Assembly (NCBI RefSeq): GCF_001677475.2 | Contig: NZ_CP015229.1 | Reading direction: 5' to 3' (one strand) | DNA: 64,000 nucleotides | From: Escherichia coli | GTDB taxonomy: Bacteria > Pseudomonadota > Gammaproteobacteria > Enterobacterales > Enterobacteriaceae | Part shown: positions 18,001-21,000 of the stretch, piece after piece | Numbering within the stretch: the first letter of the stretch is position 1 | Layout of the letters: every line of letters begins with the position of its first letter | Program-made: the position numbers

Positions 18001-21000
18001 TTTATACATAGTATACGGTTTACATTATTTGAGAGCAGGTTGTGCTGTCAAATGCTCCAGCACCAACCCAACGCCAGTTGTAGTGATGCCCTGCATGATA
18101 CAATTTATACTTCCCGCTTTTCTTAATCCCATAAATTGGTATTATAGTTTCTTCCCCACCTAAATATGCTTTACCATGGCAAAGCGGAGTTGGCAAAGAT
18201 TTGCAACCAGATAATAATATCAATACAGCTAAAACACATTTGTACATTATCAACTCCTTCTAAACCTTATAAACAGATATAGTTTTTCCGTTTTGATTAA
18301 AGAGCCAGTTTTTAGAAACTATTGCACTATAATGCCGAGTATTGTTTGCAAATGATGATGGTGTGAATGAGATATTGGTTCCATCAAATGATAGAGTAAA
18401 GTTTTGATTAGGCCCGTTCGTTAAGCCCAGATACATCTTGGTAGAGTCTTGCGTTTGAGAAAGATGCGTAATTGAACAACCTAACAACGAACCATTTATT
18501 GAACCAGCCGGATTTTGTGTTTGCACACGGCTGGAAACGGCAGAGCCAGCACCTGTCGTTGTTGAGTTATTAGAATACCCTCCATAGTTATTGTTTACAG
18601 GAACAATTTGTATATTTGTTGCCTGAACTAAAACAACAAAATTTGAACGACCTACAGTGATAGAAAAGTCCTGTACACTTTTCCCAACCATTTGCGACAT
18701 ATAAAACGGTGTACTTAGCTTAAGTTTGGCACCTGCCGATTTCATTGACCTTTCACCAGTTACACTAACGGCAGAGGAGCCAACCCATCCGGAAGCAACC
18801 CCCATTTAACATCCTCCTGTCATTCGGACGATAACACCAACTATCTTCTACCTCAGACTAATGGTTCTCTGTTCTCTGATTGTTTTATTATTTCTCTTTA
18901 AGGTCGCTAATCTCTTTACGCAGATTTTTTATTCCTTCAACTAACAGTGCAATAACACCATTATAATTTAATCGAAATCTCTCTTCACCAGATATGATAT
19001 CTGTATCAGATGTAACTAACTCTGGTTGAGCCTTTAACGCATCCTGTGCAAATAATCCCACAGATTGTTGCCAACTGCCATCAGCATTCTGTATTTCATA
19101 CAAATAACCCGTTAGCAGGTCAAGCTTCTCCAGACAATTATCTATTCGTATTGCATTTCGCTTGTTACGTTTATCCGAACGGATCTGAACATCGTTAAAT
19201 GAGCCGTTTCCGGTCACCGTCAAATTGCCATTAATACCACCATTAAAAGTTTGTGCCTGAGTCCATGTATTGGCAGTAGTAAGCAGTTCTGTTCCTTGCC
19301 CGGGGGCTCCAGTGTCTCCCTTCGGTCCCTGTGGCCCCGCCGGACCTGCTGGACCTGCTACTCCCGGATCACCTTTATCGCCTTTCGGCCCCATATCCCC
19401 CTGGTCCCCTTTAGGCCCCCGCTCTCCGGTATCCCCCTTCAGGCCTGGTATTCCCTGCGGTCCTCGCTCCCCCTGTTCGCCCTTCTCACCACGCGGACCA
19501 GCGGGCCCTACAGCCCCCTGAGCACCAACGTCACCACGCTCACCTTTCGGCCCTGCGGGCCCTTGAGGGCCCACTGGACCTGTTTCGCCTTTAGGACCGA
19601 CATCCCCCTTCGGACCAGTTTCTCCCTTCGGTCCCTGTGGCCCCGCCGGACCTGCTGGACCTGCTACTCCCGGATCACCTTTATCGCCTTTCGGCCCCGG
19701 CGCACCTGCCGGACCTGCTGGTCCAGCCACCCCCGGATCGCCTTTGTCACCTTTCGGCCCCGGCGCACCCGCCGGACCTGCTGGACCTGCTACTCCCGGA
19801 TCACCTTTATCGCCTTTCGGCCCCGGCGCACCTGCCGGACCTGCGGCTCCCGTATCCCCTTTAGGTCCCTGTGGTCCGGTCTCTCCTCGTTCACCTTTAG
19901 GACCTTGCGGGCCTGCTGGACCTCCCGGATCACCTTTCTCGCCTTTTGGCCCCATATCCCCCTGGTCCCCTTTAGGCCCCCGCTCTCCGGTATCCCCCTT
20001 CAGGCCTGGTATTCCCTGCGGTCCTCGCTCCCCCTGTTCACCCTTCTCACCACGCGGACCAGCGGGCCCTACAGCCCCCTGAGCACCAACGTCACCACGC
20101 TCACCTTTCGGCCCTGCGGGCCCTTGAGGGCCCACTGGACCTGTTTCGCCTTTAGGACCGACATCCCCCTTCGGACCAGTTTCTCCCTGAGGCCCCCGGG
20201 GCCCCCGTGCATTCTCAGCCATACGTCTGGCCTCTTCAGCACTGACAGTGGCAGCCTCTGCCCGCTTAAGGATCTCTCCGGCGCTCTCCTGCACCAGCCT
20301 GGCCTTTTCAGCATGCTGTCTGGCTTTTTCTGCATCAGCTCCGGCGGCTTTTTCAGACTCTCCGGCACGGGTCGAGCTTTCCTCTGCATTCCCCGCTGCT
20401 GTGACTGCACGGGTCGCAGCCTCAGTGGCATCAGTCGCTTTTTGTCCGGCTTCAGCCGCCCTGCTGGTTGCCGTCTTTGCACTGTCAGATGCACTCTTCG
20501 CACTGGCTGCTGCACTTTCTTTTGACTGTGTGGCCTGAGTGTTTTTTGTCGCCGTGTCTTCATTCAGACGACGAATAGTGGCAAGGTCATCAGCCACATT
20601 ATTCTGTATCTGCCGGAAATCTGTCAGCAGTTCTCCGGGTATGCTAACCTCAACAAGACTGCGGCGTAACAGCATATTGAGCGTCACCGTACTTTCGGTC
20701 CCCTCAATACGCACACGTCCGTAGACAGCAGTCTTCCCTTTCACCGTCACCGAAACCGCATACTCCCCCGGATCCATCGTCATTCCGTAATATCCACCTT
20801 CACGGGTCACTGCCGACGCACTGGTGCCGCTGAGCGCATCCGGTGAAACTGTCAGCGCCGTCAGGGTAATATTTGCTCCTGATATCGCCTCACCATCAGG
20901 AGATTTCAGCGTCCCCGAAACAACAACACTCACACTCCACCTCCGTTAAACACTTTTTTACGGGCAGACAATGCACTGTCTGCCCCCTGTTTGATCCCAA

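Follow-up and report, generated by a model that had tools for sequence, protein, structure and literature searches.

A collagen-like lateral tail fibre with internal duplications, an S74 chaperone end and a probable Gp38-type adhesin partner in a 933W-type Escherichia coli prophage

The 64,000-nt stretch of Escherichia coli DNA considered here (RefSeq assembly GCF_001677475.2, contig NZ_CP015229.1; below, the window) carries a prophage in which a first-pass annotation had marked a collagen-like tail fibre with near-identical internal duplications and a chaperone-type C-terminus. The open reading frame (ORF) of the fibre occupies exactly positions 18888-20933 of the minus strand (2,046 nt; 681 amino acids, aa), its frame is intact, and its GTG start codon overlaps the stop codon of the upstream adaptor gene (4-nt start/stop overlap). 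The gene is the lateral tail fibre of a short-tailed lambdoid prophage of the 933W/phi24B type that lacks the Shiga toxin (Stx) genes, stx. It sits at the L0121 position of 933W, with the same adaptor-fibre-...-nozzle-needle synteny, and is otherwise ordinary, a new allele of a well-populated, already annotated family.

The collagen-like nature of the fibre is evident from the Pfam Collagen match (E 4.6e-49, six stretches), from PHROG 366 'tail fiber protein' (E 4e-172) and from a near-exact match of its N-terminal ~340 aa to 933W L0121. CarboxypepD_reg matches aa 5-86 with 34.4 bits (cut-off 32.3), and phage_tail_N on aa 1-130 remains sub-threshold (20.9 bits against a cut-off of 26.6). The Gly-X-Y triplets form two runs, aa 244-339 (32 triplets) and aa 341-547 (69 triplets), separated by a single one-residue break at aa 340, between GDPG and GPAG of the GDPGGPAG motif (aa 334-341). 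At 0.286 nm per residue, this shaft would measure ~87 nm if it were fully triple-helical. One database record (P0062) bears the name of a bacterial surface collagen-like adhesin of the Scl type; this assignment was rejected on the virion-gene context and the N-terminal fibre anchor. The features of the locus are listed in Table 1.

Table 1. Coordinates of the fibre gene, its domains and repeats, and the adjacent genes in the window.
Feature	Coordinates	Strand	Basis
Lateral (side) tail fibre gene, 681 aa	18888..20933	-	ORF; Pfam CarboxypepD_reg + Collagen + Peptidase_S74; PHROG 366; homology to 933W L0121 and Stx2 phage 86
N-terminal beta-sandwich anchor domain, aa 1-~100	20634..20933	-	CarboxypepD_reg; identical to 933W here
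Ala/Glu/Lys-rich predicted trimeric coiled coil, aa ~101-243, ~21 nm	20205..20633	-	sequence; equivalent to PCoil and the phi24B gp61 coiled coil
Collagen-like shaft, aa 244-547, 101 Gly-X-Y triplets, one break	19293..20204	-	Pfam Collagen, translation
Long direct repeat copy 1, aa 249-337, the 933W-like copy	19922..20188	-	self-comparison
Long direct repeat copy 2, aa 436-524	19361..19627	-	98.9% identity to copy 1, 561 nt apart
63-nt (21-aa, 7-triplet) tandem repeat, 3.2 copies	19645..19844	-	Tandem Repeats Finder score 344, 88% matches; offsets 63 + 126
Dispersed extra 63-nt-type unit, 84 nt	19309..19392	-	self-comparison; 98.8% to 19615-19698
Short non-collagen tip, aa 548-585 (38 residues), predicted mature C-terminus and adhesin docking surface	19179..19292	-	alignment to S16 gp37; conservation
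S74 intramolecular chaperone domain, aa 586-681 (96 aa) + stop codon	18888..19178	-	Pfam PF13884; 6f45_A; invariant motif; weak AlphaFold2 fold match
Tail adaptor gene (SU10_adaptor / DUF6682), upstream, homologue of phi24B gp62	20930..21580	-	Pfam PF24175 E 7e-32
Gp38_N-type tail-fibre adhesin, 181 aa, probable receptor binder	18260..18805	-	Pfam Gp38_N; PHROG 1121; identity to phage 86/POCJ13
Cor-type superinfection-exclusion lipoprotein, lipobox LLSGC	18020..18253	-	PHROG 1119 E 3e-33; cor annotated in phage 86 and E. coli genomes

The proximal part of the protein resembles fibres that have been characterised experimentally. In the cryo-electron microscopy (cryo-EM) structure of phi24B, gp61 trimers form six lateral fibres whose N-terminal domains bind the gp62 adaptor ring; gp61 proceeds from residue 100 as a coiled coil and then as a long collagen-like shaft, and the central needle, gp56, is a separate component (preprint 10.64898/2026.04.10.717836). 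ORF67 of Sp5, the homologue of 933W L0121, is essential and was located in the tail by immuno-electron microscopy (PMC5155283). EPcl proteins are composed of PfN-PCoil-Col modules with a variable Col length and a conserved GxPGGPxG break (Ghosh et al. 2012, PMC3368898), and a trimeric collagen helix was demonstrated biophysically for EPclA (PMC3368898). The window fibre has the same PfN-coiled coil-Col order, the conserved G-x-P-G-G-P-x-G break and a Col length that varies in steps of three residues. With 933W L0121, Sp5 ORF67 (ECs1228) and phi24B gp61 it shares the anchor, the coiled coil, the position after an SU10-type adaptor gene and the break, and its first 32 triplets are near-identical to those of 933W. 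In contrast to 933W L0121, however, it contains neither the Phage_fiber_2 insert nor the PfC-type globular C-terminus (the ends do not align); it has a continuous second run of 69 triplets and an S74 end instead, and genes for an adhesin and Cor replace the unrelated small genes p60/p61 of 933W. The EPcl study deals with PfC-ended proteins; the terms 'S74', 'chaperone' and 'endosialidase' do not occur in it, and a Gp38-type partner is not mentioned (PMC3368898).

The S74 domain forms the extreme C-terminus of this coiled-coil/collagen protein. Peptidase_S74 (PF13884) matches aa 586-641 with 34.0 bits against a gathering cut-off of 22, and the full profile (1-58) is covered. A phmmer search of the PDB sequences returned the distal fragment of phage S16 gp37, comprising tip and chaperone (6f45_A, E 2.5e-11). 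In this alignment the cleavage region of the fibre pairs with S16 SNGNLNQWGGGAIYCRDLNVS/SDRRIKKD (the slash marks the cut), and the last ~20 tip residues, from INGNL onwards, pair with the gp37 segment that precedes the cleavage site. Ser586, Asp587, Arg589, Lys591 and the G-x-x-A-Q motif are invariant between the fibre, S16 gp37 and three distant S74 domains, and the S-D-x-R-x-K cleavage motif is retained at the start of the domain. Thus, on sequence criteria the fibre C-terminus is a member of the S74 family; the profile search suggested in the first-pass annotation, which had likened about the last 100 aa to endosialidase-type chaperones, gave a match above the Pfam cut-off, and the domain comprises the last 96 aa.

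In S16 the chain is cut between two serines (DLNVS/SDRRIK), and removal of the chaperone exposes the docking surface for Gp38; S16-related phages have the cut motif DVYIR/SDGRLKI (PMC7917993). By correspondence with these motifs, we infer autocleavage of the window fibre between Arg585 and Ser586. In an AlphaFold2 (AF2) monomer model of the fibre C-terminus, block means of the predicted local distance difference test (pLDDT) are mostly 74-89 for the chaperone part; the tip (the first 54 residues of the model) is of low confidence, and its docking surface is not readable from the model. Foldseek ranks the ICA domain of MyRF (7dc3), a eukaryotic relative of S74, first for the chaperone part (probability 0.99, E 7e-3, TM 0.39); the endosialidase structure 3gw6 ranks low (E 1.6). 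The domain shares PF13884 membership and the Ser-Lys motif with the chaperones of endosialidase, T5 pb1 and the MyRF ICA domain, but it follows a collagen helix and a 38-residue beta tip rather than a triple beta-helix or tailspike.

An adhesin ORF starts 82 nt downstream of the fibre gene and is followed by a gene for a Cor-type lipoprotein; neither these two genes nor the mosaic origin described below had been recognised in the first-pass annotation. Gp38_N (PF21721) matches adhesin aa 1-40 with 70.6 bits (cut-off 25), the protein belongs to PHROG 1121 'tail fiber adhesin' (E 6e-66), and its aa 18-181 are 100% identical to the annotated adhesins of phage 86 and POCJ13. Its closest phage homologue outside E. 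coli/Shigella is from Salmonella phage SSU5 (44.5% identity). Between the 181-aa and 170-aa adhesin variants the first ~41 residues are conserved and the rest falls to ~30% identity, a pattern expected of a conserved dock joined to a variable receptor-binding domain. An AF2 model of the adhesin (pLDDT 64) has a beta-sandwich, with aa 100-181 at pLDDT 70-90. A Foldseek comparison of this model with the PDB gave no match at E <= 0.001; weak matches to reovirus sigma1 and the adenovirus fibre head were rejected as noise. Despite the strong Gp38_N match, phmmer against the PDB sequences found nothing significant for the adhesin, S16 Gp38 in 6F45 included, and Pfam detected no domain beyond Gp38_N; a glycine-rich polyglycine-II sandwich is not seen in it.

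Neighbourhoods of other S74-ended collagen fibres were read in five contig sets (P0001, P0002, P0004, P0046 and P0048), three phages (86, phi296 and POCJ13) and six complete E. coli genomes; without exception, the fibre gene has a Gp38_N gene after it. The linked pair occurs in a podovirus context, after the adaptor gene, and in a siphovirus context, after J and lom at the Stf position. Adhesins of the 181-aa type come with a Cor gene and those of the 170-aa type do not, a hint that the receptor is an outer-membrane protein. The whole 38-residue tip is conserved in each S74 collagen fibre that was examined. Chaperone sequence and adhesin type vary together, LVKLDNALDRLEAL pairing with the 170-aa adhesin and the window type with the 181-aa adhesin, whereas the tip before the cleavage site does not differ between the two (L011, L013 and L015 compared with the window); the boundary at which the cassette recombines therefore seems to lie in or before the tip and not at the gene end.

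The presence of a downstream Gp38_N adhesin and Cor suggests that the fibre is probably a shaft and not a receptor binder, and the 38 non-collagen residues upstream of the predicted cut are too few for a receptor-binding domain. By analogy with phage S16, self-cleavage probably exposes the fibre tip for the adhesin, and the adhesin is then probably the receptor binder. The window fibre shares with the gp37 + gp38 systems of T2, T6 and S16 (PDB 6F45) the S74 cleavage motif, a similar preceding 20-residue segment and a Gp38_N domain encoded by the next gene. Yet its shaft is a predicted collagen triple helix on a lambdoid podovirus, whereas theirs is a beta-structured myovirus fibre, and the distal domain of its adhesin is a predicted beta-sandwich that does not match the polyglycine sandwich of Gp38. 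Published discussion of a Gp38-type adhesin in Stx-like podoviruses is absent from the searchable literature, in which automated annotations alone record it and the phi296 paper is silent; the combination of a T-even-like chaperone and Gp38 tip with a collagen shaft is apparently likewise undiscussed there, although visible in public annotations.

All repeats of the gene lie within the Gly-X-Y region, as the first-pass annotation had stated, but they are larger than the about 237-bp direct repeats and several 60-bp repeats that it had described; apart from these sizes, its description of the gene holds. The long direct repeat spans 267 nt with 98.9% identity between its copies, and an extended alignment reaches 284 nt at 97%; the copies differ by three mismatches, two synonymous and one Glu/Asp, and their longest common exact run is 148 nt. 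The short repeat is a 63-nt unit present in 3.2 tandem copies, with a further dispersed copy of 84 nt. The best self-alignment of the gene scores 252, compared with 19.5 +/- 2.8 and a maximum of 32 in 60 shuffles of the order of its Gly-X-Y codon triplets; the repeats are therefore recent duplications and not a by-product of collagen-like composition. No inverted repeats or invertible segment for fibre switching were found in 18500-21300.

Related fibres form a length series in which the collagen region varies and the chaperone tail remains constant at 96 aa in 11 related fibres. The series rises from 494 aa with 39 Gly-X-Y triplets (P0002, draft contig) and 537 aa with 53 (P0001, draft contig) to 635 aa with 72 (O104:H4 2011C-3493), 671 aa with 84 (FORC_069), 681 aa with 101 (the window), 673 aa with 107 (Stx2 phage 86, POCJ13 and 2009C-3133) and 754 aa with 134 (09-00049 and O111:H8 1056-1). 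The fibre of contig P0004 (845 aa, 76 triplets), which belongs to the 170-aa adhesin type and has a Phage_fiber_2 insert, was left out. Calculated from the triplet numbers, 39-134, the shafts would measure about 33 to 115 nm. The only full-length megablast match among complete E. coli genomes, in RM8376, is a different variant of 870 aa with a Phage_fiber_2 insert. In this record (O104:H4 RM8376, NZ_CP064387.1, 2489-5101) the fibre is scrambled inside the S74 domain (SDKRNRGGRCDIAIDNVWRS...), which is typical of compensating indel errors, and other O104:H4 genomes have a fibre that differs from it by 235 aa; we regard the record as unreliable at the fibre locus.

Pairwise comparisons show single insertions or deletions between several of these alleles. 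The 754-aa fibres (O111:H8, 09-00049 and phi296) differ from the 673-aa fibres (phage 86 and 2009C-3133) by a pure 81-aa tandem duplication, and FORC_069 differs from O104:H4 by one 36-aa insertion or deletion next to 634 identical residues. The closest relative of the window, contig P0001, is 100% identical over 3.4 kb downstream and 99.7% identical upstream, and lacks exactly 432 nt between two perfect 57-nt repeats of the window; the distal end-point of this deletion is the first 57 nt (19336-19392) of the dispersed 84-nt copy. P0002 lacks exactly one 561-nt unit of the window. All length variants are in frame and keep the Gly-X-Y periodicity. Unequal recombination or slippage between the repeats would be expected to yield such indels. 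The comparison of fibre length among relatives that the first-pass annotation had proposed thus supports its suggestion that the repeats are prone to length variation, as near-identical alleles differ only by in-frame collagen indels that end in repeats.

The two halves of the gene have different affinities. Window positions 19864-22300, comprising fibre codons 1-356 and the upstream genes, are 99.3% identical to 933W at the DNA level, and the proximal half of the fibre is only 88.6% identical to phage 86. On the other side, positions 16000-19365 align continuously with phage 86 (90.2% DNA identity over the whole 3.4 kb), and the last ~100 aa of the fibre are identical to the phage 86/POCJ13 protein. 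The junction falls inside the collagen-coding repeats. Over the surrounding 24 kb, the prophage matches the late region of 933W and VT2-Sakai with 97% identity. Compared with phage 86 (Traversvirus tv86), Shigella phage POCJ13 and vB_EcoP_phi296/315/367/419, the window has the same fibre end, adhesin, Cor and gene order, but its proximal half (aa 1-~340) is of the 933W type, its collagen sequence and repeat set differ, and it has 101 triplets rather than 107 or 134. Judged from these alignments, the fibre gene is a 933W/phage-86 chimera with a 561-nt internal duplication. Stx2 phage 86, POCJ13 and phi296/315/367/419 carry annotations for the cassette of window-type chaperone, 181-aa adhesin and Cor. 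Among 5,426 complete E. coli genomes, 52 have this cassette, for the most part Shiga toxin-producing E. coli (STEC) of O104:H4 and O111.

We consider it likely that the gene encodes a lateral-fibre shaft with a self-cleaved S74 end and a Gp38-type adhesin cap, and that its length changes through its repeats. In such a model, three fibre chains would anchor their N-terminal beta-sandwich domains to the tail adaptor ring, forming six lateral fibres, and would extend as a ~21-nm coiled coil and a ~87-nm collagen triple helix to the tip and the S74 chaperone. The chaperone would trimerise, set the register of the C-terminal end and then cut itself off between Arg585 and Ser586 by means of a Ser586/Lys591 dyad. 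The exposed tip could then be capped by the N-terminal 40-residue docking domain of the adhesin, so that the adhesin rather than the fibre would carry the receptor-binding domain, and in the lysogen Cor may block the receptor of that adhesin in the outer membrane. Homologous recombination or slippage among the in-frame duplications (the 561-nt segment with its 267-nt copy and the 63-nt tandem triplication) would lengthen or shorten the shaft and leave both ends untouched, and the repetitive Gly-X-Y DNA probably provided the crossover point at which a 933W-type proximal half was fused to a phage-86-type distal cassette.

Several observations weigh against parts of this model. The exact 681-aa protein has no record in a collection of 15 billion proteins, and megablast with the gene, or with the gene plus cassette, finds the same allele in no complete E. 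coli genome; as the allele is without a match elsewhere, the repeat number in the assembly is uncorroborated. Both of the shortest alleles, those of P0001 and P0002, were taken from drafts, in which repeats may have collapsed. Such points would suit an artefact, in which the internal duplication or the shorter alleles were created, and the length polymorphism merely simulated, by repeat collapse or expansion during assembly. The 148-nt exact run common to the long copies is longer than the usual k-mers of short-read assemblers. For phi296, phi315 and phi367, several candidate nanopore assemblies were published, and the RM8376 fibre has the garbled chaperone region described above. An artefactual duplication is usually identical, however, whereas these copies differ at three positions including one amino-acid change, and independent complete genomes and isolated phages show similar single in-frame collagen indels (81 aa and 36 aa). 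Together with the maintenance of frame and Gly-X-Y periodicity in all variants and an earlier report that Col length varies in multiples of three residues in this family (PMC3368898), these observations make an assembly artefact unlikely.

The other adverse points concern the roles of fibre and adhesin. The AF2 models are of moderate confidence (pLDDT 64-65), the ICA match is weak by its E-value (7e-3) and the rank of 3gw6 is low; the receptor-binding part of the adhesin matches solved Gp38 adhesins neither in sequence nor in fold and lacks their glycine-rich motifs. One might argue that the fibre itself binds the receptor, that its S74-like end is kept as a distal knob like the PfC of 933W, and that the Gp38_N protein is an assembly chaperone or unrelated cargo. 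The homologue in 933W/phi24B ends in a small globular domain proposed to recognise the receptor, gp38 of T4 is a chaperone and not part of the virion, and the distal domain of the window adhesin matches no known receptor-binding fold. Nevertheless, we find this explanation very unlikely: the Ser/Lys motif and the residues before it are conserved as in S16 and fPS phages, for which cleavage is documented, and the 38 non-collagen residues that cleavage would leave could hardly accommodate a receptor-binding domain. Adhesins of the T2/S16 type, which are virion-borne, have Gp38_N as their docking domain, and T4 gp38 does not (PMC7917993). A Gp38_N gene is linked to the S74 collagen fibre in all neighbourhoods covered, those of five contig sets, three phages and six complete genomes, and the Cor exclusion gene directly follows, as expected beside a receptor-binding gene. 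Purified BamA is reported to neutralise phages phi296, phi315, phi367 and phi419, as it does other short-tailed Stx phages (PMC12502783); BamA use by cassette-carrying phages may confine the lateral fibre and adhesin to accessory or initial binding. Combined with the phi24B structure, this neutralisation suggests that the central needle handles the terminal receptor and that fibre and adhesin make a separate, probably initial, contact.

Decay would be another way to account for the locus, with the fibre a remnant in a defective prophage and its repeats the products of neutral slippage. Many enterohaemorrhagic E. coli prophages are defective, and this one lacks stx and has an IS21-family insertion in its late region. 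We find decay hardly credible, since the 2,046-nt frame is intact, as are the genes for adaptor, adhesin, Cor, nozzle, needle, capsid, portal and terminase; moreover, every length variant preserves frame and triplet periodicity, and cassette-carrying phages can be induced and form plaques.

The remainder of the window shows the setting of the fibre gene. A nozzle-like protein of 567 aa and the central needle of 422 aa are encoded at positions 14790-17758 (minus strand); the needle (14790-16058) has a Phage_Tail_Tip (J-like) domain. Going by the phi24B cryo-EM preprint, the needle is likelier than the collagen fibre to recognise BamA, and the fibre was rejected as the BamA-binding protein on this ground. 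In the slot where Stx phages carry stxAB (35300-38500, minus strand), the prophage has a 143-aa TerB-domain ORF (35914-36345). This ORF lies downstream of the Q antiterminator gene (37995-38474), between the tRNA genes Arg-tct, Arg-tcg and Met (36515-36764) and a NanS-p-like esterase gene. A 682-aa protein with DUF1737, SASA esterase and DUF6645 domains is encoded at 33323-35371 (minus strand) and may correspond to gp84, reportedly the processed capsid-decorating esterase of phi24B. An IS21-family element (10029-12280, plus strand), comprising a 499-aa transposase with a Mu-transposase C-terminal domain and a 251-aa IstB ATPase, is inserted in the late region beyond lom, on the opposite strand, and may affect the viability of the prophage. 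At the right end of the window (52000-64000), E. coli chromosome (ynfH, clcB and mlc) adjoins a gene for a prophage integrase and one of the RecE family. In strain 2009C-3133, a prophage that carries the same adhesin/Cor cassette lies no more than ~45 kb from the ynfH/clcB/mlc flank, consistent with the same site.

A broader proposal, to which we would give slightly less than an even chance, is that collagen repeats, 38-residue tip, S74 domain and Gp38_N, with or without Cor, constitute a portable host-range cassette that moves between siphovirus Stf and 933W-type podovirus fibres, for which Gly-X-Y DNA would be both a universal crossover site and a length dial (39-134 triplets, ~33-115 nm). 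If so, the window would represent a fresh chimera of a 933W proximal half and a phage-86 distal cassette. For work on STEC prophages, the repeats mean that fibre length in short-read assemblies is unreliable. For the biology of the phages, the locus suggests that one Stx-type fibre family is a pure shaft, the length of which changes by repeat recombination, and that specificity probably resides in an adhesin whose small gene can be exchanged and is paired with one for exclusion. The range of strains to which Stx-type phages adsorb, and hence the spread of toxin genes, is influenced by lateral fibres, and the swappable adhesins (181-aa and 170-aa) and variable triplet number offer a testable handle on their host range.

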